From NCBI GenBank assembly GCA_964599095.1, contig CAZREB010000014.1, positions 64,033 to 128,032 of the forward strand: a stretch of DNA of 64,000 bases. The letters run 5' to 3'. The translations under genes were made by a program, and so were the position numbers. Below, one piece after another: positions 219-40,146 of the stretch (the stretch's first letter is position 1; each line of letters starts with the position of its first letter). The notes beneath the pieces were generated by a model, which did not search any database, was not told the origin of the DNA, and saw only the letters and a program-made list of their open reading frames with translations. The DNA is from an uncultured Bordetella sp. (lineage in GTDB: Bacteria; Pseudomonadota; Gammaproteobacteria; Burkholderiales; SG8-39).

Positions 219-2006
219 ATGCAACGTGCCCTGAAGAAGGCAGTAGCGAGAACCCGGCCTCGCTCGCCGGCTTTTCAGACGGAACCGCCGCCCTCCCGCC
301 GGCAGGAATGCGTCGAGCCCGCCGTACAAATGCGGATAGCGGACGATGTCCTGAGCTACCAGCAGGACTTGTGGCAGCGCGGCGTTCTTTTTCTGGACAT
401 CCTGCGCGAACGCGCCAACAACATGCTCGACCATGAACAGGCCGGACTGCCGCCATTGCTCGACTTTCCCTACGAAATGGTTCTCGATGCGCGCACCTTC
501 GACAAACCTGCGAACTACGCGCTGCTGCGGATAGTCGCGACCGGCGACCCGTGCTTCGATGCCTGCGCCGACGAATCGAAACCGCCCGTGATCGTGGTGG
601 ATCCGCGCGCGGGGCATGGTCCCGGTATTGGCGGATTTAAACGCGACTCGGAAGTGGGAATTGCGTTGCACGAGGGCCATCCCGCGTATTTCGTGATTTT
701 TTATCCGCGCCCTTGTCCGGGGCAAACCCTCGCCGACGTGCATCACGCGCTGCGTCGCTTCGTGGCGGAGGTGGCGAGGCGTCACCCCGGAAAGCCGCCG
801 GTGTTGTACGGCAACTGCCAGGGCGGGTGGGCGGTGGCACTGCTCGCGGCCGATTGCGTCGGCCTCGCCGGGCCGGTGGTCATGAACGGCTCACCGCTTT
901 CCTACTGGGCGGGCGAATCCGGCGCGAATCCGATGCGCCTCGCCGGCGGACTGCTCGGCGGCACATGGCTTTCGCACCTGACCGCAGACCTGTCCGCAGG
1001 CGTGTTCGACGGCGCCTGGCTTGCGCAGAACTTCGAGAGCCTGAATCCCGCAAATGCGCTGTGGGACAAGAACTACGCGGTGCTGGCCGATCCCGAAGGC
1101 GAACGCGAGCGATTTCTGAAATTCGAGCGTTGGTGGGGCGGATTCTATTTCCTCGGCCGCGAGGAAATCGTGTCGATCGTGGAGAATCTGTTCGTCGGAA
1201 ACAAGCTCGAGCAGGGTGTGATGCGCATCTGCGAATGCTGCTTCGCCGACCTGAAGCGCATCCGCAATCCCATCGTGGTTTTTGCATCTTCGGGCGACAA
1301 CATCACGCCCCCGCACCAGGCGCTCAACTGGGTACCGGAGGTCTACCCGAGCACCGACGATCTCAAACGCGCCGGTCAACGGATCGTGTACCTCCTCAAT
1401 CCACATGTTGGCCATCTCGGCATATTCGTCTCGGCGGCGGTGGCGCGATTCGAACACCGCGCGATCCTCGAGAATTTGGCGGAGATCGAGGCACTCGAGC
1501 CGGGGCTGTATGAGATGAAGATTCTCAACCCGACCGGCAATCCGGAGTGCCGCAAAGACCAGTACCACGTACATTTCGAGGCACGCCGCGTCGAGGACAT
1601 CCGCTTCGTCTATCCCCGCGATTCGTTCGAGCGTGTCAAGGCGGTGTCCGAATGGAATGAATGGGCTTATTCGAACTTCGTCAGCCCGTGGATGCGCGCC
1701 TTCGCGACGCCGATTTCGGCCGAATTGTCGAAGTGGCTGCACCCGATGCGAACGTCCCGCTACGCTTTCTCGGAGCGGTTTTCGCCGTGGATGGCAGCAA
1801 TTCCCGCGCAGGCGGCGCTGGTGCGCGAAGATCGCCGTCCGGCGGAGGCGGACAATCCGTATCTGAAGATCGAGCAGGCCGTAGGCAGGCAGATTTCCAG
1901 TTCGCTCGGCCTCTGGAGGTCCGTCGCGGACCAGTCGAATGAAAGCCTGTTCGCGCTCATATACGGATCGTCGCCGGGCGCCGGACCAGGTGCCGGAAGT
2001 GGATGA
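219..2006 (+). CDS. DUF3141-family alpha/beta-hydrolase-like protein (family often linked to PHA/acetate metabolism)
   Basis: 595-aa ORF with N-terminal WQRGVLFLDILRERANN and a GNCQGGWA nucleophile-elbow-like motif, both as remembered for DUF3141. ATG 330 (MRIADD...) is an alternative start. Confidence 0.65.
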   Translation: MQRALKKAVARTRPRSPAFQTEPPPSRRQECVEPAVQMRIADDVLSYQQDLWQRGVLFLDILRERANNMLDHEQAGLPPLLDFPYEMVLDARTFDKPANYALLRIVATGDPCFDACADESKPPVIVVDPRAGHGPGIGGFKRDSEVGIALHEGHPAYFVIFYPRPCPGQTLADVHHALRRFVAEVARRHPGKPPVLYGNCQGGWAVALLAADCVGLAGPVVMNGSPLSYWAGESGANPMRLAGGLLGGTWLSHLTADLSAGVFDGAWLAQNFESLNPANALWDKNYAVLADPEGERERFLKFERWWGGFYFLGREEIVSIVENLFVGNKLEQGVMRICECCFADLKRIRNPIVVFASSGDNITPPHQALNWVPEVYPSTDDLKRAGQRIVYLLNPHVGHLGIFVSAAVARFEHRAILENLAEIEALEPGLYEMKILNPTGNPECRKDQYHVHFEARRVEDIRFVYPRDSFERVKAVSEWNEWAYSNFVSPWMRAFATPISAELSKWLHPMRTSRYAFSERFSPWMAAIPAQAALVREDRRPAEADNPYLKIEQAVGRQISSSLGLWRSVADQSNESLFALIYGSSPGAGPGAGSG

Positions 2007-2098
2007 TGGCCTTACCGTCGGGAGCGTATTTTCATGGTTGACATGGATCAATATTCGCGTGCTTTACTCAGGTATCCTTCTGGACAGGTAACGGATCA

Positions 2099-2530
2099 GT
2101 GACCGCGCTGAAGATTCCCATGCGATCGAGAGCTACCCGCCATATCCTCTGGAAACGCCGTTGGACGCTGATTGCGTCCTGGGCGGTGTTCTGGTTGCTG
2201 TCTGCCTTGGCGCCGTTTTGCAGCGGCTGGGCCGCGGCAATTGGTGCGGCGAGCAGTCATGCTGCGCATCACGCCGTGACGGTATCGGCCGACGATGATC
2301 ACGAACCGGCGCAAGACAAAGAACAATGCTGTCAAACCGACGTCGAAGCGTCCGCGCTTGAATCGAAATCGGAGCTCGCTTCTTCAATCGAGGGTGAGCT
2401 CCGACCGTGCGCGATCGTCGCACGGTCGATCGTCACGTTGGTGTCGACGTGCGATAGAAGTTACCGTGTCGAACCACCGTCGTGGCCTCCCCGACAGGTG
2501 TTCCAGGATACCCGCAGGCTCCGGATTTAA
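2099..2530 (+). CDS. small membrane-anchored Cys/His protein, paralog of 5956-6429 (CzcI/DUF2946-like class?)
   Basis: 143-aa ORF with one N-terminal TM containing VFWLLSALAPFC. The C-terminus PPSWPP...TRRLRI* is shared with the 5956-6429 product (APPSS...TRRLRI*). Confidence 0.4.
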   Translation: MTALKIPMRSRATRHILWKRRWTLIASWAVFWLLSALAPFCSGWAAAIGAASSHAAHHAVTVSADDDHEPAQDKEQCCQTDVEASALESKSELASSIEGELRPCAIVARSIVTLVSTCDRSYRVEPPSWPPRQVFQDTRRLRI

Positions 2531-2714
2531 CCCCTCGCTGTTTGCTTTCGGCGGGCGCCTCGTGGCGCGCCCTTCGCCGCTGCCGGTTGTGCCGGTGGTG
2601 GCTGACGACGAAACGGCATTCGATCTTCAGCGAGGGAATCATGAATTCATTCGAAAGTTTGCGACGCGTCCGCGCTATCGCGGCTCGGCTGCGGGCGTGG
2701 TTCGGGCTCGTCCC

Positions 2715-3152
2715 GTGAGAGTCAGCGAAATCGCCAGGCTGGTCGGCGTGAAGCCGCACGTGGTGCGCTATTACGTGCGTGCGGGTTTGCTCGAGCCGCG
2801 GCGCACTGCCGGAAACGGCTACAAGAAGTTTTTGTACGAAGACGTGACGCGACTGCGATGCATCAGGGCGGCTCGCAGCGTGGGGATGTCGATCACCGAA
2901 ATCAGCGGCCTTCTGGATAAGGTGCGTAATGGTGGCAACCTGCACGCGGAGATGCGTGATCTGGTTTTGCGCAAGCACGCCGAATTGACGGCTCGCCACA
3001 AAGCGCTCGGCCAGACGCTCGAGCAGCTGTGCCGGCTGAGGGCGCTTTGCGAGGCGCGCGATCCCGTGTGCCGGGACCTGGACTCGCTGTGTGAAGTCTT
3101 GGAGCAGTCCGATCGATGCGCGCCGGAAGCTCTGAGTATTTCCGGGTTCTAG
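2715..3152 (+). CDS. MerR-family transcriptional regulator (effector unknown, Cys-rich C-terminus)
   Basis: GTG start gives MRVSEIARLVGVKPHVVRYYVRAGLL, the canonical MerR wHTH N-terminus. The C-terminal coiled coil carries five Cys. Confidence 0.8.
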   Translation: MRVSEIARLVGVKPHVVRYYVRAGLLEPRRTAGNGYKKFLYEDVTRLRCIRAARSVGMSITEISGLLDKVRNGGNLHAEMRDLVLRKHAELTARHKALGQTLEQLCRLRALCEARDPVCRDLDSLCEVLEQSDRCAPEALSISGF

Positions 3153-3169
3153 CCGCGTTAGGGCGGGCC

Positions 3170-3200
3170 TTGACCTGACACTTGCACACAGGTTTGAAAT
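3170..3200 (+). promoter_or_regulatory. putative MerR-type promoter upstream of the cytochrome-porin gene
   Basis: TTGACC (3170-3175), a 19-nt spacer containing the dyad ACCTG-N11-CAGGT, then TGAAAT (3195-3200). A 19-bp spacer is the hallmark of MerR-activated promoters. A GGGAGG RBS precedes ATG 3229. Confidence 0.4.
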
Positions 3201-3228
3201 CAGTCCCAATCGAAATCAGGGAGGGGTC

Positions 3229-4581
3229 ATGCGAATCGACGAGCGCATCGGTTGGAGAACGGCAGGCGCGGTGATCGCGACTGTCATTGCGTGGATCATG
3301 GCGATTCCCGGCGCACAAGCCGTGCCCAGCATGGGCCGGCAAACCGGCTACGAGTGCGCCAAATGTCACACCGTGTTTCCCGAACTGACGCCGTTCGGCC
3401 GGCAATTCAAGCTCGGCGCGTTCGCCATGAGTTCGGCAAAATGGGACGAAAAGCCTTTGGTCGAAAGAATACCGGTTTCCGGGCTCGTGCAACTCTCGAG
3501 AACCAGCACGAAGAATACCAGCGCGGGCGGCGCGACGCCGGGGACGGACTTCGTGCGCGATCGAGAGACGGTCCTCCAGGGCGCGGGGCTCTACTACGGC
3601 GGCAAGATTACCGAGAAGTCCGGTGCCCTGATCCAGTACAACTATGACGGGATCGAGGAAAGATGGGGCATGGAAATGTTCGATGCCCGCTACGCCGACG
3701 GCACCTCTCTGGCGGGAAAGGAGTTGACCTACGGCGTTACGCTCAACAACAACCCGACAGTGTCGGACATCTATAACAGCACCTCGGCGTGGGGATTTCC
3801 GCATACGGGATCCGCGGCACGGCAGATGCCCGCAGCTACGATGATCGACATGACGCTCGCCAGCCAGGTGGGCGGGATAGGAATCTACGGCCTGTGGGAT
3901 GATTTGGTCTACGCCGAAGTCGCCGCCTACAGGACAGCGCGCCGCAGCGCCTTCCGGTTCATGGGGGCGGGCGTGCCGAAAGAGACGGTGCTGGATGGCA
4001 CGGCACCGTACTGGCGCCTTGCGTTGCAAGGGGAATCCGGGCCAAGCAGTTTTTCCGCCGGCGCCTACGGCATGGTCGCCAAGGTTCTCACCGATCGGGA
4101 CAACGCTTCACTGGGGAGCGACAGATTCCGCGATTTCGGAATCGACGGCTTTTACCAATATATCAAAGGCGACCATACCTTGTCGGCAAGTGCTACCCGA
4201 ATTCGCGAGAAGCAGACCTGGGGCACTTCGTTCGCCCAGGGCCTCGTCTCCAACCCAAGCGGCACCCTCAATACTTTTCGAGCAAGCCTTCACTACTACT
4301 ATATGCGCAAGTGGGGAGGGGGAGTGCAATACTTCCGTACGACCGGCAGTTCTGACACCCTGCGCTACAACACGGGCGACGCCGTGATGGGAAGCGCCAA
4401 CGACAGCCCTAACAGCAAGGGCTATATTGCCGAGATCAATTACCTTCCGATACAAAACATCAAGCTCGCCCTCAGGTATACCGCCTACCAGCAGTTCAAC
4501 GGAGCGTCGACCGACTATATGCCGGGCAGGAACGCATCCGACAACAACAACCTGTTTTTGCTAGGCTGGATATTGTTTTGA
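3229..4581 (+). CDS. Cyc2-like fused monoheme cytochrome c / outer-membrane beta-barrel porin
   Basis: Signal peptide (..PGAQA/VPS). A single CAKCH heme motif lies about 12 residues after the predicted cleavage site, in the context GRQTGYECAKCHTVFPELTPFGRQFKLGA. About 400 aa of alternating Gly/Tyr/Ser/Thr-rich sequence follow, ending ...LLGWILF* (terminal aromatic residue typical of OMPs). Confidence 0.65.
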   Translation: MRIDERIGWRTAGAVIATVIAWIMAIPGAQAVPSMGRQTGYECAKCHTVFPELTPFGRQFKLGAFAMSSAKWDEKPLVERIPVSGLVQLSRTSTKNTSAGGATPGTDFVRDRETVLQGAGLYYGGKITEKSGALIQYNYDGIEERWGMEMFDARYADGTSLAGKELTYGVTLNNNPTVSDIYNSTSAWGFPHTGSAARQMPAATMIDMTLASQVGGIGIYGLWDDLVYAEVAAYRTARRSAFRFMGAGVPKETVLDGTAPYWRLALQGESGPSSFSAGAYGMVAKVLTDRDNASLGSDRFRDFGIDGFYQYIKGDHTLSASATRIREKQTWGTSFAQGLVSNPSGTLNTFRASLHYYYMRKWGGGVQYFRTTGSSDTLRYNTGDAVMGSANDSPNSKGYIAEINYLPIQNIKLALRYTAYQQFNGASTDYMPGRNASDNNNLFLLGWILF

Positions 4582-4639
4582 CGATCGATCTTCGTCGATA
4601 TCGGAATTCAAACGGCAGGCGTCTGGAGGGAAAGCAACC

Positions 4640-4987
4640 ATGAATCTGCGACAGTTGAGGCACGGGCTCGGAAATGCGGCCGCGGCGGCGATCTTACTCG
4701 GCGGCTCGAATCACGCCGCGGCGCTCGATGCCGACGGGGTTCAGGCGCTGATGAGAAAAAGCGATTGCTTCAAATGCCACGCGGTAGACAAGAAGAAGGA
4801 CGGCCCGATGTACCGGGAAATCGCGGCCAAGCTCAAGGCCAAGCCGGATTCCGAACAGAAGCTTTACACTCATCTCACAACCAATCCCAAAGTGGAAGTC
4901 GACGGCAAGAAGGAAGATCACGTCGCCCTCAAGACCAAGAACGACGCGGACATCAAAGACGTGATCAAGTGGATTCTGTCCCGTTGA
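4640..4987 (+). CDS. periplasmic class I monoheme cytochrome c (c551/c552-like)
   Basis: 115 aa with a signal peptide. CFKCHAVDKKKDGPMYREIAAK resembles C-x-x-CH-x-(ID/VD)-x-K-x-VGP-x-Y-x-x-(V/I)A-x-K of cytochrome c551. Confidence 0.8.
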   Translation: MNLRQLRHGLGNAAAAAILLGGSNHAAALDADGVQALMRKSDCFKCHAVDKKKDGPMYREIAAKLKAKPDSEQKLYTHLTTNPKVEVDGKKEDHVALKTKNDADIKDVIKWILSR

Positions 4988-5240
4988 CCATTTCGCCCCG
5001 GTAAGGCCGCCCGCGAGAATCGCTACGAGGGGTCTGCGGGGTCCGGTCCTCAGGCGGCGATGTGCTGGCATTGTGTCCGGACAGCCCCGCCTTGAGTTCG
5101 AGCAGGCCGCCGCCCGCCAGATTGGGCAATCGCTCACGTTGTGGCGGAGTACTGTGGACCAGTGGAACGAGGCCGTGTTCAATCTCAGGTACGGTCATCC
5201 GCCGGGCGACGGGTCACGCGAATGGGGCGTACGGTAACAA

Positions 5241-5849
5241 GTGGCATCGAACATCCCTTCGATTTCTTTGAACCGCAAGGCAGGCGCGGACGGTCTTCTC
5301 GTCTGGCTCGTCCGCATCGCGTACCGGCCGGCGCTGCATCGGCTGATCTCGCGCCTCGCGCCGGTCGCGGAGCGTCGTTGGTATCCGCCACTGGTCGGCG
5401 CCATGACGTTTGCGGCGACACTTTCGATGACCGTGCCGACCGTGCCGCTGCTGTGCGCCCTCGTCGCGCTGAAGCGACGGCGCTGGCGGGCGATAACGAT
5501 CTGGGCCGTGCTGGGCAGCGCCCTCGCGGGCGCTCTGTTCGTCCATATACTGGGGCATCTTGGCACGCGTTTCATACAGGCGCGGCTTCCGGAACTGGCA
5601 GCCTCGTCGCATTGGCAGCATATGGTGGAATGGATCCTGCATCACGGTTGGTGGCTGCTCACGTCGATCGCCGCGTCTCCCATCGCTCAGACTCCGGCAT
5701 TGTTTCTCGCAGCGCTGGTAGGAATGCCGGCCACGTCGGTTTTTTCCGCACTGCTTGTGGGAAAGGCGGCAAAATACGGATTGATGGCCGGGTTGACGGC
5801 CCGCGCAACCGGAGCAGTCGTGGATACGCGTGAGGGCGAATCCCCGTAA
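5241..5849 (+). CDS. integral membrane protein (YqaA/DedA-like?)
   Basis: 202-aa ORF with 4-5 hydrophobic segments and no diagnostic catalytic motif. The start is uncertain. Confidence 0.45.
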   Translation: MASNIPSISLNRKAGADGLLVWLVRIAYRPALHRLISRLAPVAERRWYPPLVGAMTFAATLSMTVPTVPLLCALVALKRRRWRAITIWAVLGSALAGALFVHILGHLGTRFIQARLPELAASSHWQHMVEWILHHGWWLLTSIAASPIAQTPALFLAALVGMPATSVFSALLVGKAAKYGLMAGLTARATGAVVDTREGESP

Positions 5850-5955
5850 GTAGCGTGCGAACCTTGCGCAAACGGCGCCGGGCGCGATGGACAGTGGCGG
5901 GCATCGAGATGCGGACTTGATTTCGATCAATCGATGCGCCCGATCAACGGCTAGA

Positions 5956-6429
5956 ATGCCCGGTATGTCAGTTGCAGTTCAAATTGGCGCGGCGACTCGC
6001 CTAGGCGCTTGGTTGCGAATCAGCGGAGTGGCGCGCGCGGGGCTGATCGTGGGCTGGCTGGTCTTCTGGCTGAATGCGGCGCTGTTTCCGTGCTGTGACG
6101 CGATGGCGGCGATCCTGAGCGGACATGCGGAGGGCGGGATGCGGCCGTCCTCGAGCGCGTCTTCATCGCCACATCCGGAATACGAAAATTCCGAATCCTC
6201 GGATCAATGCCCAGATGCGCCATGTGGCGAGAAGCTAGGCTCGGTGCCCGTCCCGGCGGGCAAGTTCGAAGTGAACCCGCCGGATCGTTCGCCGGCAGTC
6301 CGTATTGCCGCCGATTTGGCAGTCGCCATGCCCGTCGAGCACGTGTTTCGCGCGCCGAAAATCGGGGTTTCGCGCGCGCCCCCGTCTTCGCTGCGACACT
6401 ACCTGCGCACCCGCCGCCTGCGGATTTAG
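5956..6429 (+). CDS. small membrane-anchored Cys/His protein, paralog of 2099-2530
   Basis: TM segment LVFWLNAALFPCCDAM and His/Cys/acidic-rich middle (SSPHPEYENSESSDQCPDAPCGE). The C-terminus ...LRHYLRTRRLRI* has its last six residues identical to the 2099-2530 product. Upstream ATG 5887 is an alternative start. Confidence 0.4.
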   Translation: MPGMSVAVQIGAATRLGAWLRISGVARAGLIVGWLVFWLNAALFPCCDAMAAILSGHAEGGMRPSSSASSSPHPEYENSESSDQCPDAPCGEKLGSVPVPAGKFEVNPPDRSPAVRIAADLAVAMPVEHVFRAPKIGVSRAPPSSLRHYLRTRRLRI

Positions 6430-6586
6430 CCGCAGTTCCCATGGGATCTCAAAACCGCAACGCACTCGCGGTCCCAGGAGCCATCCGCTCGTTTCCTGCA
6501 ACCGGCCGCTTGTTCCAGTCTCGACTGACGGCGGATCGGTTCGAATCAATGATCAACCCGTTTGCAATCCAAAGGAAAATGCCATC

Positions 6587-7024
6587 ATGAAAACCTCGAT
6601 ACTGATTTCCGCAATTCTCGCCGCTACTTTGGCGGCGCCGATCGTTTCGGCGCAGGTGAAACCCGCGCCGGCGATGCCGTCGATGAATGCGGACGGCGAT
6701 AAACAGATGTCCGTGATGCAGGAGAACATGAAGAAGATGCAGCAACAGATGGAGAAGATCGGCGCGGCGAAGGACCCAAAGGAACGGCAAAAGCTCATGC
6801 AGGAGCATATGCAAACCATGACCGAAAGCATGAAGGCGATGCGCGGCATGGGCGGTCCGATGATGATGGACGACCGCAAAGGCGGCGGTATGATGGGCGG
6901 CATGAAGGACGGCGACATGAAGAAGCGCCAGGAAATGACCGAAAAGCGCATGGACATGATGCAGATGATGATGGAGCAGATGATGCAGCGCGAGCAGGCG
7001 AAGGATTCGATGCCGCATATGTGA
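6587..7024 (+). CDS. Met-rich periplasmic protein (putative Cu(I)/Ag(I)-binding)
   Basis: Signal peptide MKTSILISAILAATLAAPIVSA. Methionine content is extreme: MQENMKKMQQQMEK, GMGGPMMMDD, GGMMGGMKDGDMKK, MDMMQMMMEQMMQ. Confidence 0.7.
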   Translation: MKTSILISAILAATLAAPIVSAQVKPAPAMPSMNADGDKQMSVMQENMKKMQQQMEKIGAAKDPKERQKLMQEHMQTMTESMKAMRGMGGPMMMDDRKGGGMMGGMKDGDMKKRQEMTEKRMDMMQMMMEQMMQREQAKDSMPHM

Positions 7025-7162
7025 GCGGGAATCGCCGCCCTTTTGCATTGAACTCGCCTGGCTGATCTTCATGGCTGCGGTCGGCGAATGACTGCCCTTA
7101 GCGGATCCACGGGCGGCCGTCGGCTGCCTGCGGCCAGTCGCGCGACGGTCGCAAAGTGCCGA

Positions 7163-9076
7163 ATGAGGAGATACAGATCGGTGAAATCCTGTCCCTGGAT
7201 CGGGCGTGCTGCGTTTTTGGCATTGCTGTTTGGGCTGACGCATCTTCCGCCCGCCACTGGGCAGACGGACTCCGCAGAGCACGAATCCCATCATCCGGAA
7301 AAGGTCGCCGGACCCCATGCGGGGGGGGCTTCAGTCGGCGCGTCACCCGCCGATTCCGCCTCAGACCTTTCGGTCGCCGGGCCGGCCCGGGACGTCGGGG
7401 CGATGGGGGGCATGCAAAAAATGATGGAAGGAATGATGGGCGGAGGCAAGAGCGAGACTTATCCGCGCATGATGAGTCTTCCCGGCTCGACGCCCGAAAC
7501 GCGCTCCGAAGTGGAGCGTTCGGCCGAGAAGAGCATTCACGAAGGGACTGTTCTGCTGCGGGAAGCCCGCGAGCGCCTGGAGAAAGCGATCGAAGCCGGC
7601 GACCACGAAGGCGCGACAGGCGCGTTGCAGCAGACGCGCGACGCGATCGCGCGTTTGGAAAGCGGCGTTTCCTCGCACAGGGCGATACGCGAAGGCATTG
7701 CGCCGAAGGACCTCGCCCTGCGGTGGTACAAGCGCAATTTGGACCTGGCCGCAGCCGATCGCGCCGCTCCTGCGCATGGAATCTTCGGGTTGTCCTGGAT
7801 TCATTACCTGATGATGTCGATCCTCGTCGCGTCCGCCCTTATGACGCTCTGGATCTATCTGCATCGGGCGCGCCGCGTATCGGCCCTTCTCGAAAGACTG
7901 GCGAGCGGCCCGAAGGGAGGAGTCCCCGCGCGAGAATTTGCCGAGTCCGCGGTGGCGCCGAGCGCGACTGCGCAGGGCGTCCATCCGGACGCGGCTCCTT
8001 CCAGGTCGAATTCCTGGAGCGGCTTGCTGCAGGTGAAGCGGATTTTTCAGGAAACACCCCGGGTCAAGACATTCCGGCTCGCCGATCCCGCCGGCGGGCG
8101 GCTGCCGTTCAATTACCTGCCGGGGCAGTTCCTGACGCTCACCGTCGCGCCGAACGGGCAGGCGATCAAGCGTTCCTACACGATCGCGTCGTCCCCGACG
8201 CACCGGGATTACTGCGAAGTGACGGTGCGCCACGAAGATCGCGGAGCCGTTTCGGGTTATCTTCACGAACGCATCCGCGAGGGAGACGCGCTTCGGGTAA
8301 CGGCGCCATCCGGGAAGTTCACTTTCGACGGAAAGACCGGTCGCAGCATCGTGCTGATCGCGGGAGGCGTGGGCGTCACGCCGATGATGAGCGTGGTGCG
8401 CTACCTGACCGACCGCTCCTGGCCCGGCGATGTTTACCTCGTATACGGCTGCAAGGCCGACGACGATGTCATCTACCGCGAGGAGATCGAATATCTAGCG
8501 CGGCGGTACCCGAATTTCCATGTGACTCTGATTGCAGAGCGCGCGGGGCCAACGGGATGGAGTCATCGCGTCGGACGCATCACGCCGGGATTGCTAACGG
8601 AGTCGGTGCCCGACATTGCGTCGCGTCATGTGCACCTTTGCGGACCGGCGCCGATGATGGAAGCCGTCAGGCCGATGCTCGCATCGCTTGGGGTACCGGC
8701 GTCCGAGATCGAGACCGAGGTATTCATCGGCAAGGAGCGGCCGCAGCCGCTGCCGTCGCCCGGACCCCAGGCCGGAGCCGTGCAGGACGCGGATCTGCGG
8801 ACGGGGCCGTTGAGTGTCGCGAAGGCCACCTTCGAACGCTCGCGGAAGACGGCAGCGCTTCCACCAGGCAGGACCATACTCGAAGCCGCGGAAGACATTG
8901 GCGTGAACATCGAGTACTCATGCCGGGTGGGAACCTGTGGAACGTGCAAGGTGAAGCTGCTTGCCGGGACCGTGACAATGGATAGCGAGGAGGCTCTCGA
9001 ACCCGCCGACAAGGCGCTGCATCTGATCCTGGCGTGCCAGGCAAAGGCCACGAGCGATGTGTCGATCGACGCATAG
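7163..9076 (+). CDS. membrane-anchored FNR-like FAD/NAD(P)H oxidoreductase with C-terminal [2Fe-2S] ferredoxin domain and N-terminal periplasmic Met-rich domain
   Basis: Signal-like N-terminus, Met-rich stretch MGGMQKMMEGMMGGG, helical region, then a single TM (WIHYLMMSILVASALMTLWIYL) followed by HRARR (positive-inside rule). FAD motif RSYTIAS, NAD motif LIAGGVGVTPMMS, LCGPAPMM, then plant-type ferredoxin CRVGTCGTCKV...LACQ. Upstream ATG 7088 is an alternative start. Confidence 0.8.
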   Translation: MRRYRSVKSCPWIGRAAFLALLFGLTHLPPATGQTDSAEHESHHPEKVAGPHAGGASVGASPADSASDLSVAGPARDVGAMGGMQKMMEGMMGGGKSETYPRMMSLPGSTPETRSEVERSAEKSIHEGTVLLREARERLEKAIEAGDHEGATGALQQTRDAIARLESGVSSHRAIREGIAPKDLALRWYKRNLDLAAADRAAPAHGIFGLSWIHYLMMSILVASALMTLWIYLHRARRVSALLERLASGPKGGVPAREFAESAVAPSATAQGVHPDAAPSRSNSWSGLLQVKRIFQETPRVKTFRLADPAGGRLPFNYLPGQFLTLTVAPNGQAIKRSYTIASSPTHRDYCEVTVRHEDRGAVSGYLHERIREGDALRVTAPSGKFTFDGKTGRSIVLIAGGVGVTPMMSVVRYLTDRSWPGDVYLVYGCKADDDVIYREEIEYLARRYPNFHVTLIAERAGPTGWSHRVGRITPGLLTESVPDIASRHVHLCGPAPMMEAVRPMLASLGVPASEIETEVFIGKERPQPLPSPGPQAGAVQDADLRTGPLSVAKATFERSRKTAALPPGRTILEAAEDIGVNIEYSCRVGTCGTCKVKLLAGTVTMDSEEALEPADKALHLILACQAKATSDVSIDA

Positions 9077-9114
9077 CGGCCGGCGGCGCCTCGCCAGGTA
9101 TCCCGGGATTGCAA

Positions 9115-9867
9115 ATGCAGCCTGATCGGTCCGCGGTCACGGGATGGATCCTGCTCCTGCTGGCATTGTGGACGGGTTTTCTTATGCATCAATCTCCTCG
9201 GTTCCCCGGCAGTCCGTGGGGCGGGGTGTTCGGAGTGTCCGCGGCGGTCCTGCTGCTGGTGCCGCTCGGATATTCCGCTCTGAAGCGTCTGGAGTGGTTG
9301 AAGGAGCGGATTGGCGCTCGGCTGTCTCTCGCAAGAGGGCTGGCCTGGCATGTGAACGCCAGCATCGGCGGGGCGTTTCTCGCCGTTTTGCATTCCGGAC
9401 ACCGGTTCGACAGTTGGCTGGGAATTTCTTTGATGGCGGCGATGCTGCTTGCGATACTGAGCGGCTACGCCGGCCGATATTTCCTCGGTTTTCTAACGCA
9501 AGACCTGAAGGCGCGCGAGGACGCGCTCGAAGCCCTGCAATCCGACTACGACCGGCTCGCGGCCGAGATCGCCGTACATCCCGCCCGGGAATTCGAGGGT
9601 ACCGGGACTTTCGGCCTGCGCAGCCGGATTGCCGAGGCGATCGGCCGTCCGTCCGCGCCGAAAAGACAGGAGGACCCCGGACGGCGCGTGTTCGAGATTG
9701 CCGAGGCCATGGTCGACACCGAATATGCAATCGTCGCCGACGAGACCCTGAAGCGCAAATTGCGGATTTGGCTCGCAGTTCACATCGCGGTCTCGGTTTC
9801 CTTTTATGGACTGCTTGCGCTGCATGTCTGGGGCGGGATCCAGTTCGGTCTGCGGTGGTTCTCATAG
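9115..9867 (+). CDS. five-TM membrane protein with two intramembrane His pairs (putative di-heme b, ferric-reductase/NOX-like)
   Basis: Predicted TM3 is WHVNASIGGAFLAVLH and TM5 is VHIAVSVSFYGLLALH. Each has two His exactly 14 positions apart, the geometry of bis-His di-heme transmembrane domains. The start lies 38 nt after the reductase gene. Confidence 0.5.
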   Translation: MQPDRSAVTGWILLLLALWTGFLMHQSPRFPGSPWGGVFGVSAAVLLLVPLGYSALKRLEWLKERIGARLSLARGLAWHVNASIGGAFLAVLHSGHRFDSWLGISLMAAMLLAILSGYAGRYFLGFLTQDLKAREDALEALQSDYDRLAAEIAVHPAREFEGTGTFGLRSRIAEAIGRPSAPKRQEDPGRRVFEIAEAMVDTEYAIVADETLKRKLRIWLAVHIAVSVSFYGLLALHVWGGIQFGLRWFS

Positions 9868-9868
9868 C

Positions 9869-10612
9869 GTGGGCGGACGGCGGCTTATCGTGGTCTTGCT
9901 AGCATTTGGCGCACTCTCGTTGGCCGCTGGATCGGACTTGGCCGGGGAGGATTCGCTCATGCGCGCGGTTTGGCGAAGGGCCGTCATGCCCGGTGCGTTG
10001 TCCGGATCTCACGCTTTCCTTGCCGACGACTGCGCTGCCTGCCACGTTCCGGTAAATGGGGTCGATCCTGCGCGTTGCGTCGCATGTCATGCCGACAATG
10101 GTGCACTTCTGCAGCGGCAGCCGACGGCGTTTCATGCCGACATTCAGGCCTGCTCGGGGTGCCACGTCGAGCACCAGGGCACCGTGCGAATGCCGACGAC
10201 CATGAATCACGCGCATCTGGCACGCACCGGTTTGCAGCTGGCTGCCGCCGAATCGCAGGAAGAGCGCGCGCGGTTGCTCGTCCCTGGGCGCGCCGGTGCG
10301 GGAGAATCGCTGCTGAAATGCGCTAGCTGTCACGCGACCAAAGACCGCCATCAAGGCTATTTCGGCGCCGACTGCGGCCAGTGCCATGCGACCGCGGTGT
10401 GGACGATTTCCGATTTCCGCCATCCGTCGCCGCGATCGACCGAATGCGCCCAGTGCCACAAACCGCCGCCGAGTCACGCCATGATGCATTTCTCGATGGT
10501 CTCCGCGGCGGTTGCGCGCCAACCGAAGGCCGAGGCGGGCCAGTGCTACCTCTGCCACCAAACGACTTCCTGGAACGATATCAAAGGCGTCGGCTGGTTC
10601 AAGCATCACTAG
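9869..10612 (+). CDS. periplasmic heptaheme c-type cytochrome (c3/c7-like)
   Basis: Seven CxxCH motifs: CAACH, CVACH, CSGCH, CASCH, CGQCH, CAQCH, CYLCH. GTG 9869 gives the signal-like N-terminus VGGRRLIVVLLAFGALSLAAG, 1 nt after the upstream stop. Confidence 0.8.
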   Translation: MGGRRLIVVLLAFGALSLAAGSDLAGEDSLMRAVWRRAVMPGALSGSHAFLADDCAACHVPVNGVDPARCVACHADNGALLQRQPTAFHADIQACSGCHVEHQGTVRMPTTMNHAHLARTGLQLAAAESQEERARLLVPGRAGAGESLLKCASCHATKDRHQGYFGADCGQCHATAVWTISDFRHPSPRSTECAQCHKPPPSHAMMHFSMVSAAVARQPKAEAGQCYLCHQTTSWNDIKGVGWFKHH

Positions 10613-10639
10613 TCGAGCCGCTTAGAGGAGGGAAAACGC

Positions 10640-12127
10640 ATGCTCGAGTATCGGAATACCAACGAAAAGCCAATTGGAACATCGCAAATGGCAAACGGGC
10701 AACAGGGCGAAAATTCACCCCTTGGCCAGTCCCGCGGGATGCGGCTTTCATTCCTTGGGGCAGCCGGAACGGTGACAGGATCGCGGTACCTGGTGCAGAT
10801 CGACGACCGCAAGATACTGGTGGATTGCGGCCTTTTTCAAGGTTACAAGCCGCTGCGATTGCGCAATTGGGCGCCGTTTCCCTTTCCTCCGCCCGAGATC
10901 GATGCGGTCGTCCTGACGCACGCGCACCTCGACCACAGCGGCTACCTGCCCGCGCTGGTGCGCGATGGTTTTCGCGGGCCGATCTTTTGCAGCGGAGGAA
11001 CTCGCGAACTCGCGCAGATCCTCCTCCCGGACAGCGGGCGCCTGCAGGAGGAGGAAGCGCAGTACGCGAATCGGAAGCGCTATTCGAAGCATCACCCGGC
11101 ATTGCCGCTGTATTGCGAGGACGACGCGAGGAAGGCGCTCGAACGCTTCCGGGCCATTGAATTCGGCCAGCCCTTGGAATTTGCCCCGGGTGTGCACGTC
11201 GAGTTGCACCCGGCCGGGCACATGATTGGAGCGTCATGCGTCAAGATCTCGGGCAGGGCCGAGACGATTCTTTTCTCCGGCGACGTCGGCAGGCCGAACG
11301 ACGCGATCCTCTCGGCCCCAACGACAGGACTCGAAGCGGACTATCTGGCGGTCGAGTCGACCTATGGAAACAGGTCGCACCCGAAGGAGGATGCGGAGGC
11401 GGTTCTTGCGGAAATCATCAATCGCACCGCGGCGCGCGGCGGGGTCGTGGTCATCCCGGCGTTCGCAGTCGGCCGCGCCCAGGCCTTGATGTATTTCTTG
11501 TGGCGGCTCAAGTCGGGCGGGAGAATTCCCGATCTTCCCGTTTTTCTGAACAGTCCGATGGCGACCGACGCGACCGCGGTCTACCATCGCCACCGTACGG
11601 AGCATCGCCTCTCCCCGGAGCAATGCAAGGGGATGTGCACCGTCGCGAAGATCGTGCGCTCGGTAGAAGAATCGCGTGCGCTGAACAGGATTAGGCAGCC
11701 GGCCGTGATCGTCTCGGCAAGCGGGATGGCCACTGGAGGCAGGGTGCTGCATCACCTGAAGGCATTCGCGCCCGACCCCAGGAACACAATTCTCTTTGCC
11801 GGCTATCAGGCCGGCGGTACCCGCGGAGCCCGCCTTGTGGCCGGCGAGCGCGAGATCCGAATCCATGGCGACGATGTGCAGGTGCGCGCGGAGGTGCTCA
11901 ATATCGACAGTCTTTCCGCTCACGCCGACGCCGACGAAATAATCACTTGGCTGCGCACGTTCGGGAAGCCGCCGCGGCAAACGTTCGTCACGCACGGCGA
12001 GCCCGCCGCCGCCGACGCGCTGCGTCGGAGGATCGAGCGCGAAATGGGCTGGAAGGCCGGGATTCCCGAGCATTTGGAGAACGTTGATCTCGAATTGAAA
12101 ACGCCCGGGACGGGAGCTGGGAAATGA
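10640..12127 (+). CDS. MBL-fold / beta-CASP family hydrolase (RNA-metabolising metallo-beta-lactamase type)
   Basis: FLGAAGTVTGSRYLV, VLTHAHLDHSGYLPAL (HxHxDH) and the C-terminal beta-CASP motif ...SAHAD.... A strong RBS (GAGGAGGG) sits 7 nt before the ATG. Confidence 0.8.
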   Translation: MLEYRNTNEKPIGTSQMANGQQGENSPLGQSRGMRLSFLGAAGTVTGSRYLVQIDDRKILVDCGLFQGYKPLRLRNWAPFPFPPPEIDAVVLTHAHLDHSGYLPALVRDGFRGPIFCSGGTRELAQILLPDSGRLQEEEAQYANRKRYSKHHPALPLYCEDDARKALERFRAIEFGQPLEFAPGVHVELHPAGHMIGASCVKISGRAETILFSGDVGRPNDAILSAPTTGLEADYLAVESTYGNRSHPKEDAEAVLAEIINRTAARGGVVVIPAFAVGRAQALMYFLWRLKSGGRIPDLPVFLNSPMATDATAVYHRHRTEHRLSPEQCKGMCTVAKIVRSVEESRALNRIRQPAVIVSASGMATGGRVLHHLKAFAPDPRNTILFAGYQAGGTRGARLVAGEREIRIHGDDVQVRAEVLNIDSLSAHADADEIITWLRTFGKPPRQTFVTHGEPAAADALRRRIEREMGWKAGIPEHLENVDLELKTPGTGAGK

Positions 12128-13641
12128 ATGGCCAACTGTCCCATCTCCTTCGCTTGAGACGTGTGGGCATCGACACGTATCAGGAATCGGTCGTCTACAT
12201 GCATCGCGATTGCCATGTATGCCGGTCCGAGGGTTTCGCTGCCCAGTCGCGCGTGCTTCTGCGCAGCAACGGCGTCGAGTTGATTGCGACCCTCAACGTT
12301 GTCGAGTCGTCCATCGTTTCGCCGGGCGAGGCGGGACTTTCGGAAAGCGCGTGGCGCAAGTTCGGCGCGCGCGAAGGAACTGCTCTGGAGGTCGGACCCG
12401 TGCCGCCGATCGAATCGTTGGCGCGGGTGCGGGGCAAGCTGCACGGCGAGCGCCTCAGCGACCCGGATCTGCGGGCTATCGTCGCGGATATCGCCGCTGG
12501 ACGCTACGCCGACATCCAGCTCGCGGCATTCGTATCCGCCTGCGCCGGCGGGCGTCTCGACCGCGAGGAGATCGTCGGGCTCACGAAGGCGATGATCGAT
12601 TCGGGAGACAGGCTGATTTGGCCGCGCGGTGCGAAGATCGCGGATAAGCACTGCGTAGGCGGCCTTCCGGGCAACCGGACCACGTTGATCGTGGTCCCGA
12701 TCCTCGCCGCTGCCGGCCTGACGATGCCCAAGACGTCATCCCGGGCGATCACGTCGCCCGCCGGGACGGCGGACACGATGGAAACGCTTGCCCCCGTCGA
12801 TCTCGACCTGGCGTCGATCCGCCGCGTGGTGGAGCGGGAGGGGGGCTGCATCGTATGGGGTGGCGCGGTGGGACTGAGCCCCGCGGACGATGCCCTCATT
12901 CGAGTGGAGCGGCCGCTCGACCTGGACAGCGAAGCGCAACTCGTCGCCTCGGTCATTTCGAAGAAGGTCGCGGCCGGATCGACCCACGCAGTCATCGACA
13001 TACCAGTAGGCCCGACAGCCAAGGTTCGCTCGGCCATCGCGGCGCGTGCGTTGGGAGAGACGCTCGAGTACGTGGCCGCCCGGGTTGGACTTCTGGCAAA
13101 GATCGTCGTCACCGACGGAATGCAGCCTGTCGGTCGTGGGATCGGTCCGGCACTCGAGGCGCGTGACGTGCTGCAGGTGCTGCGCGGCGAACATGCCGCG
13201 CCTGAAGATTTGCGGGAGCGCGCCCTTGCACTGGCGGGCGCCTTGTTCGAGCACCTGGAAGCCGCGCCTTTCGGCAAAGGCATCGTGCGTGCGAGGCAAG
13301 TTCTGGAAAGTGGTGCGGCATGGCGCAAGTTCGAGGCCATCTGCGAGGCGCAAGGTGGACTGCGCGAGTTGCCGCACGCGGCGCATACGCGGCCCTGGCT
13401 CGCAGTGCACGGAGGTAAGGTAGCGGCCATCGATAATCGCAGCCTCGCGCGGGCAGGAAAACTCGCCGGGGCGCCGCGGGACCCGGAAGCCGGTATCGAC
13501 CTCCACGTTCGTCTCGGCACGCGAATCGCGAGAGGTGAGCCCCTGTTCACGCTACATGCCAATTCCCCGGGGGAACTCGACTACGCGCTTGCTTACGTCG
13601 AGGCGCATCGGACGCTGATTCGTGTGGAGCCGGACTCGTGA
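12124..13641 (+). CDS. thymidine phosphorylase family protein, archaeal AMP-phosphorylase-like subtype with N-terminal extension
   Basis: 505 aa with DKHCVGGLPGNRTT, TSSRAITSPAGTADTME and S-x-ISKK motifs of pyrimidine-nucleoside phosphorylases. The start ATG overlaps the upstream stop (ATGA). Confidence 0.85.
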   Translation: MNGQLSHLLRLRRVGIDTYQESVVYMHRDCHVCRSEGFAAQSRVLLRSNGVELIATLNVVESSIVSPGEAGLSESAWRKFGAREGTALEVGPVPPIESLARVRGKLHGERLSDPDLRAIVADIAAGRYADIQLAAFVSACAGGRLDREEIVGLTKAMIDSGDRLIWPRGAKIADKHCVGGLPGNRTTLIVVPILAAAGLTMPKTSSRAITSPAGTADTMETLAPVDLDLASIRRVVEREGGCIVWGGAVGLSPADDALIRVERPLDLDSEAQLVASVISKKVAAGSTHAVIDIPVGPTAKVRSAIAARALGETLEYVAARVGLLAKIVVTDGMQPVGRGIGPALEARDVLQVLRGEHAAPEDLRERALALAGALFEHLEAAPFGKGIVRARQVLESGAAWRKFEAICEAQGGLRELPHAAHTRPWLAVHGGKVAAIDNRSLARAGKLAGAPRDPEAGIDLHVRLGTRIARGEPLFTLHANSPGELDYALAYVEAHRTLIRVEPDS

Positions 13642-14564
13642 CGCCGGTCGTATTCGCACTGCCCGGCAACGAGGCCATGGCCGATGCGCTTGCTGCCCGC
13701 CTGGCCGCCGAGCGGGGCGCTTGCACAGTACGGCGCTTTCCGGACGACGAATCCTATGTGCGGGTCGAAACCGCGGTTTCCCGTCGCGACGCGATCCTGG
13801 TATGCACGCTCGACAGGCCGGATGGTCGAATCGCCCAGCTCCTGCTCCTGGCATCGGCTGCGAGGGAGTCGGGCGCCATGCGGGTGGGGTTGGTTGCGCC
13901 GTATCTCGCGTACATGCGCCAGGACGCCCGGTTCTCTCCGGGGGAGTGCGTGAGCGCGAAGGTGTTTGCGCGATGGATCGGGTCGCACTTCGACTGGCTG
14001 GTCACCGTCGATCCGCATCTGCATCGCTTCGCAAACCTGGTGGAGCTATACCCGATCCCGACGCGCGCCGCCCATGCCGCACCGGCGATCGCCGCGTGGC
14101 TGTGTGAAAACGTCCCCGCGCCAGTGCTGGTCGGCCCGGACATGGAGAGCGCGCAATGGGTTGAAGAGGTAGCGCGCCTTGCCGGTGCGCCGAGCATCGT
14201 GCTCGCCAAGCGGCGCCGTGGCGACCGCGAGGTGGAGGTGTCGATCCCGGACCCGGCAATGCTCGTTGGCCGCACCCCGGTTTTGGTCGACGATATTGTC
14301 TCGACGGCGCACACGATGATCGCGGCGGTGCGCCACCTGCGCGTGGCAGGCCTCGCGCCACCGGTTTGCATTGCGGTGCATGGAATCTTTGCCGGCGATG
14401 CGCTCCATGCGCTGCAGGCCGCCGGCGCTGGCCGCGTCGTGAGTTGCGACACCATTCCTCACTCAACGAACGCCATTGCCCTCGACGAGGTTCTTTGGTC
14501 TTGCATTGCGGACCTGCTTGCCAACGGCCCGCCTCCGAACCTTGACGACAAGGCGACGGGGTGA
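13638..14564 (+). CDS. ribose-phosphate pyrophosphokinase (PRPP synthetase) family protein
   Basis: RFPDDESYVR, APYLAYMRQD, VDPHLH and PRPP-binding loop VLVDDIVSTAHTM. The GTG start overlaps the upstream stop (GTGA). Confidence 0.85.
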   Translation: MTPVVFALPGNEAMADALAARLAAERGACTVRRFPDDESYVRVETAVSRRDAILVCTLDRPDGRIAQLLLLASAARESGAMRVGLVAPYLAYMRQDARFSPGECVSAKVFARWIGSHFDWLVTVDPHLHRFANLVELYPIPTRAAHAAPAIAAWLCENVPAPVLVGPDMESAQWVEEVARLAGAPSIVLAKRRRGDREVEVSIPDPAMLVGRTPVLVDDIVSTAHTMIAAVRHLRVAGLAPPVCIAVHGIFAGDALHALQAAGAGRVVSCDTIPHSTNAIALDEVLWSCIADLLANGPPPNLDDKATG

Positions 14565-15358
14565 GTGCGCGCGAGGCGATGCGCGTCGTCGTTGCCGCGA
14601 TAGGGATCGGCGGCTTGCTCTGGGCACAGGACACGATGGCGGCCACGATCCCGCCGGTGCACGTGCCCGTGGACTGGATTCTCGAGTGGCTGTCGCACGT
14701 CCTGGTGGGCGCGATCGCCGCGATTGCCGGAGTGCTTGCACACCGCGCCTGGTCCCGGCGCCGGTGGCGGCCCGCGCCGGCCGCGGTGACGGTCGAGTCA
14801 ATCCTGGCGGTCGACTTGGTGAATTCGACCTGGCTGGCGACGCATCATGGGGAAGAACTGGCGATGCGCGCGCGCAACGTCCTCGAGCGGCGTGCGCTTG
14901 CGGCAGGCAATTCGAATGGCGTTTCCTTCGTGGAGAACACGGGAGACGGGTGCATGATGGCGTTTCCGTCGGTGATCGCGGCCACGCGCGCGGCTGGCGA
15001 ATTGCTGCTGGGGCTGCGAAGCCGCCCGCCTGAGATGGCGCCGGGCCCGGGGCTCGAAGTCCGGTCTGCGATTACCTATGGGCAGATCCTGCTCGATTCG
15101 CGCGGGTCACGCCACGGTGCGGTGATTAACGAGGCCTTTCGGCTCATGAGCGTCGCGGGAGATGCATTCGTGGATGTCGGCGGGGAAGAACGCCTGGCCG
15201 AAATCCCCGACCGCAACCGGATTTTCCTCAGCGAGGACGCGGCCAATGAAATCGGATCGACGCAATTCAAATTGCGGAAAGTCGGTGTTTGCCGCCTCAA
15301 GGGGTTCAGCGGATTCCATCGGGTGTACGAGTTGCTGTGGACTCATGAAACACGCTAA
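14561..15358 (+). CDS. membrane-anchored class III nucleotidyl cyclase
   Basis: Two N-terminal hydrophobic segments. The cyclase homology domain has metal Asp residues in LAVDLVNST and ENTGDGCMMAF, and the N..R pair in VINEAFRL. Glu/Asn replace the canonical adenine-specifying Lys (VENTGDG). The GTG start overlaps the upstream stop. Confidence 0.7.
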   Translation: MSAREAMRVVVAAIGIGGLLWAQDTMAATIPPVHVPVDWILEWLSHVLVGAIAAIAGVLAHRAWSRRRWRPAPAAVTVESILAVDLVNSTWLATHHGEELAMRARNVLERRALAAGNSNGVSFVENTGDGCMMAFPSVIAATRAAGELLLGLRSRPPEMAPGPGLEVRSAITYGQILLDSRGSRHGAVINEAFRLMSVAGDAFVDVGGEERLAEIPDRNRIFLSEDAANEIGSTQFKLRKVGVCRLKGFSGFHRVYELLWTHETR

Positions 15359-26995: not shown

Positions 26996-27027
26996 ATGAT
27001 ACAGTCCGTACCCAGCTACGGAGTCAA
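26996..27027 (-). promoter_or_regulatory. mer operator/promoter (PmerT), divergent from merR
   Basis: The minus strand reads TTGACT-CCGTAgctgggTACGGActg-TATCAT. The dyad TCCGTA-N6-TACGGA between -35 and -10, with a 19-20 bp spacer, closely resembles the Tn501/Tn21 merO. Confidence 0.75.
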
Positions 27028-27039
27028 GGCGATTTTCGA

Positions 27040-27486: not shown

Positions 27487-27528
27487 GGCGGGCCAAGATC
27501 GCCGGGTCCGGCTGAATTCGGACGCCGT

Positions 27529-36340: not shown

Positions 36341-36341
36341 A

Positions 36342-36950: not shown

Positions 36951-36955
36951 CGCGC

Positions 36956-38209: not shown

Positions 38210-38210
38210 A

Positions 38211-38293: not shown

Positions 38294-38303
38294 CGGTGCG
38301 CTG

Positions 38304-38783: not shown

Positions 38784-38784
38784 C

Positions 38785-40140: not shown

Positions 40141-40146
40141 GACACC

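Follow-up and report, generated by a model that had tools for sequence, protein, structure and literature searches.

Two predicted redox modules in a metal-resistance block of an uncultured Bordetella sp.

The 64,000-nucleotide window analysed here (uncultured Bordetella sp., contig CAZREB010000014.1) carries nine consecutive + strand open reading frames (ORFs) at 2715-10612, several of which encode predicted redox proteins. With moderate confidence we read this span as two independent redox modules carried on a metal-resistance island that was acquired laterally. Module B (6587-10612) comprises a Met-rich protein as an accessory, a reductase, a protein with five transmembrane (TM) segments, called here the 5-TM protein, and a heptaheme cytochrome c; it is most likely a quinone-free electron exporter. 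Module A (2715-4987) comprises a MerR regulator with its promoter, a Cyc2-like porin and an MtoD-like cytochrome, and is most likely a metal-induced redox conduit of the outer membrane and periplasm. A sequence-only reading of the same DNA had proposed one trans-envelope electron-transfer chain made of all nine genes. The genes lie on one strand where that reading placed them and most of the features it listed were found, but the nine genes do not form one conserved system. The protein domains, the heme motifs, the conservation of ligands and gene order, the barrel fold and the association with metal-resistance genes were observed or computed. The genes of module B are as follows.

6587-7024, + strand: Met-rich periplasmic protein, 145 amino acids (32 Met; signal peptide)
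7163-9076, + strand: membrane-anchored NAD(P)H/FAD/[2Fe-2S] reductase (FAD_binding_6, NAD_binding_1 and Fer2 above Pfam cut-offs)
9115-9867, + strand: 5-TM putative di-heme cytochrome b of FRD (ferric reductase domain)/DUF4405 type (invariant HX13H pairs on TM3 and TM5)
9869-10612, + strand: membrane-anchored periplasmic heptaheme cytochrome c (7 CXXCH; Cytochrome_C7 E 5.6e-8; N-terminal TM anchor)

A scan with the 5-TM gene, taking one genome per species, gave 80 module B loci from Planctomycetota, Legionella, Nitrospirota, Acidobacteriota, Verrucomicrobiota and other groups. Next to the 5-TM gene, 75 of these loci encode the reductase N-terminal domain, 76 the reductase catalytic part and 78 the heptaheme cytochrome, and the order is always the same. 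In the window the heptaheme gene starts one base past the stop codon of the 5-TM gene, as it also does in locus L088. Because the order is kept in 75-78 of the 80 loci and the heptaheme gene follows the 5-TM gene directly, module B can be regarded as a unit.

The reductase was expected to be tethered to the inner membrane, and besides its three domains it has one TM segment, at about residues 207-234 by hydropathy, ahead of the catalytic part. An alternative start lies at 7088. The catalytic motifs RxYT, GGVGxTP and CX4CX2C...C are all conserved. The protein is related to BenC, PDR and GbcB-type reductases, and it has the FNR-like part and C-terminal plant-type ferredoxin domain of the GbcB/Hcr/PaaE/PDR type. 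It reached no NCBIfam equivalog threshold (best 217 bits against a cut-off of 500) and is therefore a member of no named enzyme family. Conservation extends to its N-terminal 300 residues, which hold a signal/anchor, the motif EHxxHHP, a Gly/Met-rich stretch, helices and the one TM segment. This His/Met-rich domain is predicted to be periplasmic. It has no relative in the PDB; the only hint was the small metal-binding protein SMBP at E 0.025, and a CnrX/ZraP fold is not claimed for it.

The Met-rich periplasmic protein, which the sequence-only reading had also picked out, corresponds by position to the Metal_resist-like protein encoded ahead of module B elsewhere, of which it is a shortened ortholog. 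Aligned with orthologs of 254-289 amino acids, it lacks the C-terminal LTXXQ/Metal_resist domain. Orthologs of this protein are present in 39-41 of the 80 module B loci. The Metal_resist-like protein and the reductase N-terminal domain share a mature N-terminus, AQxxxEHxxHH (hhalign probability 94%).

Two 14-spaced His pairs had been noted in the 5-TM protein, and both are present, H79/H93 on TM3 and H223/H237 on TM5. All 27 homologs compared, the most distant at 33% identity, retain these four residues together with H25 and H96. TM5 reads W219-X3-H223-X13-H237 (WLAVH-X13-H), while TM3 reads W78-H79-X13-H93 and not WX3H. In the SGYAG motif of TM4, G117 is invariant in the 27 homologs and G120 at least 90% conserved, whereas S116 is invariant only among the 10 closest. 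The HX13H pairs of TM3 and TM5, taken with the SGXXG of TM4, correspond to the FRD signature. The family had 62 word-indexed homologs, and an exhaustive profile search gave 134 cluster representatives at E <= 1e-30. AlphaFold2 (pLDDT 82) predicts five TM helices and, at residues 125-218, an extended hairpin of helices. The positive-inside rule would place this hairpin and H79/H223 on the cytoplasmic side and H93/H237 on the periplasmic side. Members of the family give weak Pfam matches to DUF4405 (19 of 27, best E 2.5e-4), Ferric_reduct (7 of 27) and Ni_hydr_CYTB, the cytochrome b561 family (6 of 27). DUF4405 is known to bind heme b (PMC11334425). The best match of the family profile among PDB sequences was only the TM domain of NOX5, at E 0.66. 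The 5-TM protein may work like an FRD protein and yet fails Pfam membership, and its binding of heme b is putative. Two longer homologs were considered as gene fusions. P0184 (545 amino acids) starts with the 5-TM domain, and it was rejected as a 5-TM/cytochrome fusion since its extra part has no CXXCH. In P0253 (465 amino acids) the C-terminal reductase part and the 5-TM protein are connected by an Arg-rich linker, which looks like a frameshift or gene-calling artefact and not like a genuine fusion.

The heptaheme cytochrome does have seven CXXCH, as do 75 of 76 homologs. No PDB relative was found for it by sequence.

For both modules we infer cofactor binding, the direction of electron flow, the acceptor and the regulation. 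In module B, cytoplasmic NAD(P)H would reduce FAD, and FAD would reduce the [2Fe-2S] cluster. The cluster would then reduce a cytoplasmic-side heme b held by H79 and H223, from which electrons would pass to a periplasmic-side heme b held by H93 and H237. This second heme would reduce the membrane-anchored heptaheme cytochrome c, which in turn would reduce a periplasmic acceptor, and the quinone pool would not be used. FNR-type reductases with a plant-type ferredoxin domain draw electrons from NAD(P)H, as is established for BenC, PDR and their relatives. Therefore, the downhill direction of module B is expected to be outward.

The neighbours of module B point to metal stress. Clustering of neighbouring ORFs across the 80 loci gave Metal_resist-like genes in 41, glutamate dehydrogenase in 41, multicopper oxidase in 28 and outer-membrane efflux genes in 21, as well as ICMT-like, DUF2933 and N-type (atypical F-type) ATPase genes. 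With tblastn, 34 loci had multicopper oxidase within 10 kb of module B, 20 had CopB, 17 a P1B-ATPase, 16 an RND pump and 39 a Metal_resist-like gene. At least one canonical metal-resistance gene lies within 10 kb in 50 of the 80 loci; of the 55 loci with a length of at least 15 kb, 41 have one. The closest long relatives of the window read Metal_resist, reductase, 5-TM and heptaheme. After the heptaheme gene, L086 continues with CopA (a multicopper oxidase), CopB and a Cu-ATPase, L087 with the oxidase and one more gene to the contig end, and L089 directly with the Cu-ATPase; L086 and L089 also have a MerR gene upstream. In Legionella pneumophila subsp. fraseri, module B stands between an N-type ATPase operon and genes for a multicopper oxidase-CopB fusion, DUF2231 and DUF3141. 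In 15 Legionella species (e.g. L064 1598-7792), an N-type ATPase operon immediately precedes module B. Given these gene neighbours and the His/Met-rich periplasmic domains, the acceptor would be a metal ion, most likely Cu(II), or a copper-handling protein.

The main rival on the acceptor of module B is that it does not reduce metals at all. The NAD(P)H electrons would instead counter copper-driven oxidative damage, either through removal of peroxide or superoxide by the heptaheme cytochrome or through re-reduction of periplasmic proteins, in parallel with Fre/MsrQ feeding MsrP. The architecture, in which a cytoplasmic flavin reductase feeds a di-heme b protein of the MsrQ/FRD type, resembles such a pathway. 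Module B is also found together with multicopper oxidases, by which Cu(I) is already handled, and the Metal_resist gene directly upstream is of the ZraP/CpxP-like chaperone kind. However, no MsrP-type or peroxidase-type partner is conserved beside module B, and its His/Met-rich periplasmic segments are typical metal-binding sequences. We consider this role rather improbable, and a metal ion or copper-handling protein is preferred as the acceptor.

Four further genes follow module B in the window (10640-15358), the first starting 27 bp after the heptaheme gene. They encode an MBL/beta-CASP hydrolase, a thymidine-phosphorylase-like protein, a ribose-phosphate pyrophosphokinase-like protein and a 265-aa protein. 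Pfam supports the hydrolase and phosphorylase-like genes, the pyrophosphokinase-like label was read from the translation and the 265-aa protein matches no family. Because each start overlaps the preceding stop by 4 bp, these genes are probably in an operon with module B. Homologs of the hydrolase were also seen near module B in L021 and near the Cyc2-like porin in L092, L093 and L104.

Module A lies at the start of the span and consists of the following features.

2715-3152, + strand: MerR-family metal-type regulator (Pfam MerR_1 E 5.5e-18, MerR-DNA-bind E 2e-10)
3170-3200, + strand: MerR-type promoter, TTGACC (3170-3175), 19-bp spacer, TGAAAT (3195-3200)
3229-4581, + strand: Cyc2-like fused monoheme cytochrome-porin of the outer membrane, 450 amino acids (single CXXCH, barrel model, homology)
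4640-4987, + strand: MtoD-like periplasmic class I monoheme cytochrome c, 115 amino acids (Cytochrom_C E 8e-9; 1 CXXCH)

The porin matches no Pfam or NCBIfam family, and it has more than 3600 homologs. A hydrophobic segment at residues 11-33 ending in AQA forms a signal sequence, and the one CXXCH is at C43. Its AlphaFold2 model, made from a 51-sequence alignment (pLDDT 81.7), has 16 beta-strands after a short N-terminal heme region, and Foldseek placed OmpC/OmpF porins at the top (E 1.7e-8). The product therefore models as a beta-barrel, as the name Cyc2-like fused cytochrome-porin had implied. The criteria for Cyc2 are a signal peptide, a single CXXCH, the motif PXFAR[Q/K][T/Y], a length of at least 365 amino acids and a 16-strand porin (Keffer et al. 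2021, PMC8406198). The protein of the window has the signal peptide, the single CXXCH, the length and the 16-strand barrel, but its heme-upstream motif is PSMGRQT, and the motif reads PSM[A/G]RQT throughout the subfamily. A Caballeronia homolog, 41% identical, has the canonical PAFARQT, and its gene lies between HiPIP and c-type cytochrome genes. Because it departs from the canonical motif, the porin is named Cyc2-like, a relative rather than a strict member. Distant Cyc2 homologs are functionally uncertain according to Keffer et al. (PMC8406198).

The monoheme cytochrome of module A had been assigned to the c551 type. It is a monoheme cytochrome c, but its best solved relative, by phmmer, is PDB 4XXL (E 2.6e-23 over residues 12-114), which is MtoD of Sideroxydans lithotrophicus ES-1. 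The heme-binding residues C43/C46 and H47 are numbered as in MtoD, and H94 aligns with the distal His95. Since its ligands H47 and H94 align with His47 and His95 of MtoD, the cytochrome is bis-His and MtoD-type, not His/Met c551. The MtoD-like gene follows the porin gene in L083, L084, L090 and L092-L094 and precedes it in L085.

The regulator and its 19-bp-spacer promoter were found as anticipated. The MerR protein has the features of the CueR/ZntR/MerR metal sensors, namely a helix-turn-helix, a dimerisation helix and a C-terminal Cys pair (C111-X7-C119, close to the C-terminus), and its promoter has a dyad and a spacer within the 19-20 bp typical of them. Its top NCBIfam match is CueR at 62 bits, under the equivalog cut-off of 147, and no equivalog cut-off was reached. 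The dyad, ACCTG-N11-CAGGT at 3173-3193, lies within the promoter between the merR stop and the porin gene and is the only occurrence of this operator in the whole window. In two relatives the arrangement is retained: L084 has a MerR ortholog (53% identical) and the promoter upstream of the porin gene, and L083 has the promoter in part. Scans for sigma-70 promoters (16-18-bp spacers) and for terminators gave results at chance level.

By analogy with Cyc2 and MtoD, module A most likely takes up electrons from Fe(II) or Cu(I). Electrons from such a reduced metal at the cell surface would pass to a high-potential acceptor of the respiratory chain. Module A could also run in reverse if it were fed by module B.

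In three contigs with porins 62-83% identical to that of the window, the porin gene is accompanied by genes for a 107-115-aa cytochrome and a 199-204-aa NapC/NirT tetraheme protein. The upstream side of L084 has DUF3141 and MerR genes, as in the window. A metagenome scan, with these three contigs counted in, gave 83 porin loci, nine of which have NapC/NirT beside the porin; seven of the nine carry all three genes. The order in L083 is porin, cytochrome c, Cytochrom_NNT and VTT, and in the window it is porin, cytochrome, a 253-bp gap and VTT. The order in L083 thus indicates that the NapC/NirT gene is missing at 4988-5240. Between the two modules the window has these features.

4988-5240, no strand: 253-bp gap at the NapC/NirT position of relatives, with a weak remnant of a DUF3141 end inside
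5241-5849, + strand: VTT/DedA-like membrane protein (VTT_dom E 1.7e-5, under the gathering score)
5887-6429, + strand: orphan ORF of 180 amino acids with one TM segment and a Cys motif (GC3, the G+C content at third codon positions, 0.69)

Within the gap, 5082-5192 encodes 37 residues like the C-terminal end of a DUF3141 protein (43% identity, a weak match at E 2e-4), and this fragment may be a rearrangement scar. In L083 and L084, orthologs of the VTT protein with 72-75% identity adjoin the porin cluster. A search of 5.8 billion proteins gave no homolog of the 180-aa ORF, and neither Pfam nor NCBIfam matches it. In its N-terminal part it is paralogous to the 143-aa ORF at 2099-2530 (45% identity over 49 amino acids), with which it shares a TM segment with a Cys motif. 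Both ORFs end in TRRLRI, and a 46% homolog of ORF 2099-2530 is located just upstream of the porin gene in L096. The label of CzcI-like Cys/His proteins could not be confirmed, as neither ORF matches a family.

These features could be taken as signs that the span is a decaying remnant without integrated function. In that case an island rearrangement would have removed NapC/NirT and the Metal_resist domain, and the modules would stand side by side by chance. The missing NapC/NirT gene, the Met-rich protein without its conserved C-terminal domain, the DUF3141-like fragment in the gap and the 180-aa ORF without a homolog are all consistent with this. All redox genes are intact, however, with conserved ligands and coding-type GC3, and the promoter is conserved. 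Repeats and mobile-element scars were sought around the gaps of the span and none were found. We regard decay as very improbable and retain the two-module reading.

The nine genes fail as a co-conserved set. Among the 80 module B loci, MerR is found in one and a cytochrome-porin in two, both as weak matches 8-9 kb off, and the c551-like, VTT, small Cys/His and window-type Met-rich genes are found in none. Among the 83 porin loci, module B is nearby once: in L099 it is found 7.5 kb downstream, beyond HD-domain regulators, amid RND pump genes and with no NapC/NirT. This lack of co-conservation indicates two modules and not one system. Overall, modules A and B are neighbours in no more than three or four loci besides the window. 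The two porin matches among module B loci come from marine Nitrospirales (L017 16071-19833, and L018). There, the genes 5-8 kb downstream of module B encode a Rieske protein, a fusion of cytochrome b with a c domain, a monoheme cytochrome and a Cyc2-like porin-cytochrome of 402 amino acids. An HD-GYP regulator is located between module B and this Cyc2-like group.

It is nevertheless conceivable that the window holds one trans-envelope chain, in which module B replaces NapC/NirT. Electrons would then run from NAD(P)H through the heptaheme and MtoD-like cytochromes and the Cyc2-like porin to periplasmic or extracellular metal ions, under MerR control. The nine genes are on one strand within 8 kb, and NapC/NirT is absent exactly at the position it occupies in relatives. 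L099, the only other porin locus with module B nearby, likewise has no NapC/NirT, and the two Nitrospirales loci have module B and a Cyc2-like gene within 7-9 kb of each other. Transfer from a low-potential multiheme cytochrome to an MtoD-type heme would be downhill, since the potential of MtoD is +155 mV (PMC4412085). The counts given above, two of 80 and one of 83, argue against such a chain, and many porin loci have neither NapC/NirT nor module B. Moreover, characterised Cyc2 and MtoD run the opposite way, in electron uptake (PMC8406198, PMC4412085). There is a single MerR operator, and the modules are set apart by gaps of 253 and 157 bp and by the orphan ORF. As each module is typical cargo of such islands, their proximity may reflect no more than a shared pool of metal-stress genes. 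A single chain is therefore judged unlikely. Direct coupling of modules A and B in this organism is likewise improbable; it keeps some plausibility because NapC/NirT is absent both here and in L099. The fuller proposal, that both modules are wired into a MerR-switched chain which bypasses quinones, carries electrons from NAD(P)H to the outer surface and reduces toxic metal ions outside the cytoplasm, is distinctly unlikely. If true, it would describe an outward-running conduit of the Cyc2 type and a new form of extracellular electron transfer for detoxification, not respiration. The reading of two independent modules is preferred to these proposals.

The block of metal-resistance genes noted earlier around the span was found, extending over about 27 kb with CusF, a P1B-ATPase whose gene faces that of a second MerR, CzcCBA-like genes and a YHS protein. 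GC3 is about 0.75 at 1-27 kb of the window versus about 0.9 in the tpiA-secG-nuo region, and because of this difference the block appears to be laterally acquired. The change falls at about 27000-29000 and marks the edge of the island, and the high side carries tpiA, secG, tRNA-Leu (35324) and the nuo operon (35517-50415). No integrase or flanking repeat was identified. A megablast search of 2000-12200 against plasmids gave no close relative, with short matches to the Met-rich gene only.

A DUF3141 protein is encoded at 219-2006 of the window (E 8.9e-211). DUF3141 genes recur beside the Cyc2-like porin (L084, L092, L093, L106) and beside module B in Legionella (L052, L054, L059, L064, L066), and the gene seems to be part of the same mobile pool of metal-stress genes as both modules. 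Beside the porin cluster, an N-type ATPase operon occurs in two relatives (L083 653-6949, L085 12441-18494). Nucleotide-signalling proteins are found near both modules, in the window (14561-15358, 25419-26165), in L099 (12557-13963, 16455-17138) and in L017 (11784-13124). This set consists of a protein with a weak Guanylate_cyc match and a YHS domain, HD/HD-GYP proteins and the 265-aa ORF without a Pfam match, which was grouped with them. Their presence hints at second-messenger control of these metal-stress clusters.

Several observations weigh against our reading of the two modules. In 30 of the 80 module B loci no canonical metal-resistance gene lies within 10 kb, and a glutamate dehydrogenase gene is near module B in the 41 loci counted above. 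The 5-TM protein of the window itself matches no Pfam family, PF01794 and PF14358 included, and a fold search with its model gave no significant PDB match, the long helices drawing matches to ABC transporters and BAR domains. A Cu(II) reductase is not what one would expect in copper resistance, since Cu(I) is oxidised by the multicopper oxidases encoded nearby. A tblastn search across the whole window found no NapC/NirT gene or remnant, and so module A stands without its usual partner. Full independence is further questioned by the proximity of the modules in L099 and the two Nitrospirales loci, which is rare and probably more than chance. The glutamate dehydrogenase gene is upstream of module B and on the same strand in 33 of 45 copies (e.g. 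L065 6590-7933), and the enzyme could be a source of NAD(P)H for module B.

Module B is apparently an undescribed, widespread three-gene unit; a literature search found no description of it, within incomplete coverage that does not prove absence. It would give a new quinone-independent electron route across the inner membrane. A 2020 review names CcoG as the sole specific bacterial cupric reductase and places heme-based, NADPH-driven surface metalloreductases in eukaryotes only (PMC7558416). Because CcoG alone is listed there, a periplasm-facing, NAD(P)H-driven reductase would add a missing step in bacterial copper handling. Module A is a new context for known kinds of protein, with Cyc2-like and MtoD-like proteins under a metal-sensing MerR inside resistance islands, and it is a lead to a possible detoxification role of such proteins. 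Cyc2-like and MtoD-like proteins serve as markers of iron oxidation and yet occur here; therefore, caution is needed when iron oxidisers are called from markers.

Compared with known systems, module A is closest to Cyc2 and to the Mto pathway. It shares with Cyc2 the signal peptide, the single N-terminal CXXCH, the 16-strand barrel, a length of about 450 amino acids and homology to canonical-motif proteins. It differs in its PSM[A/G]RQT-type motif and in its predicted MerR control inside a metal-resistance island. The second cytochrome resembles MtoD of the Mto pathway, which has the NapC/NirT protein ImoA, with the heme Cys and both His kept (E 2.6e-23), and in relatives the MtoD-like gene adjoins a NapC/NirT tetraheme gene as in mto. 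In contrast to the Mto pathway, the outer-membrane partner here is the Cyc2-like porin and not MtoAB, and the window is without a NapC/NirT gene.

Module B is similar to the FRD enzymes, that is eukaryotic Fre/NOX/STEAP and MsrQ with the flavin reductase Fre, in its NAD(P)H/FAD module, in HX13H pairs that would hold two stacked b hemes and in the predicted outward flow of electrons. Unlike these enzymes, it is split into separate proteins with a [2Fe-2S] cluster between flavin and heme b, and it has a 5-TM membrane protein with weak Pfam FRD/DUF4405 matches and a heptaheme c output. It would be a bacterial counterpart of the Fre/NOX/STEAP metalloreductases in which the parts are distinct proteins, an iron-sulfur step is added and seven hemes form the output. 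The PCC3/PCC4 inner-membrane proteins of Fe(II) oxidisers have five TM segments, SGXXG on TM4 and WX3HX13H on TM3 and TM5 (He et al. 2017, PMC5566968). Compared by these described motifs, the 5-TM protein shares the five TM segments, SGXXG on TM4, HX13H on TM3, WX3HX13H on TM5 and a periplasmic multiheme neighbour. Its TM3 reads W-H and not WX3H, its partner is a cytoplasmic NAD(P)H reductase in place of the proposed quinone site, and no porin or extracellular cytochrome is conserved beside module B. With CcoG, module B might have a common role in membrane-bound Cu(II) reduction, but CcoG has two [4Fe-4S] clusters, no hemes and a role in cbb3 oxidase assembly, and it has no sequence relationship to module B.

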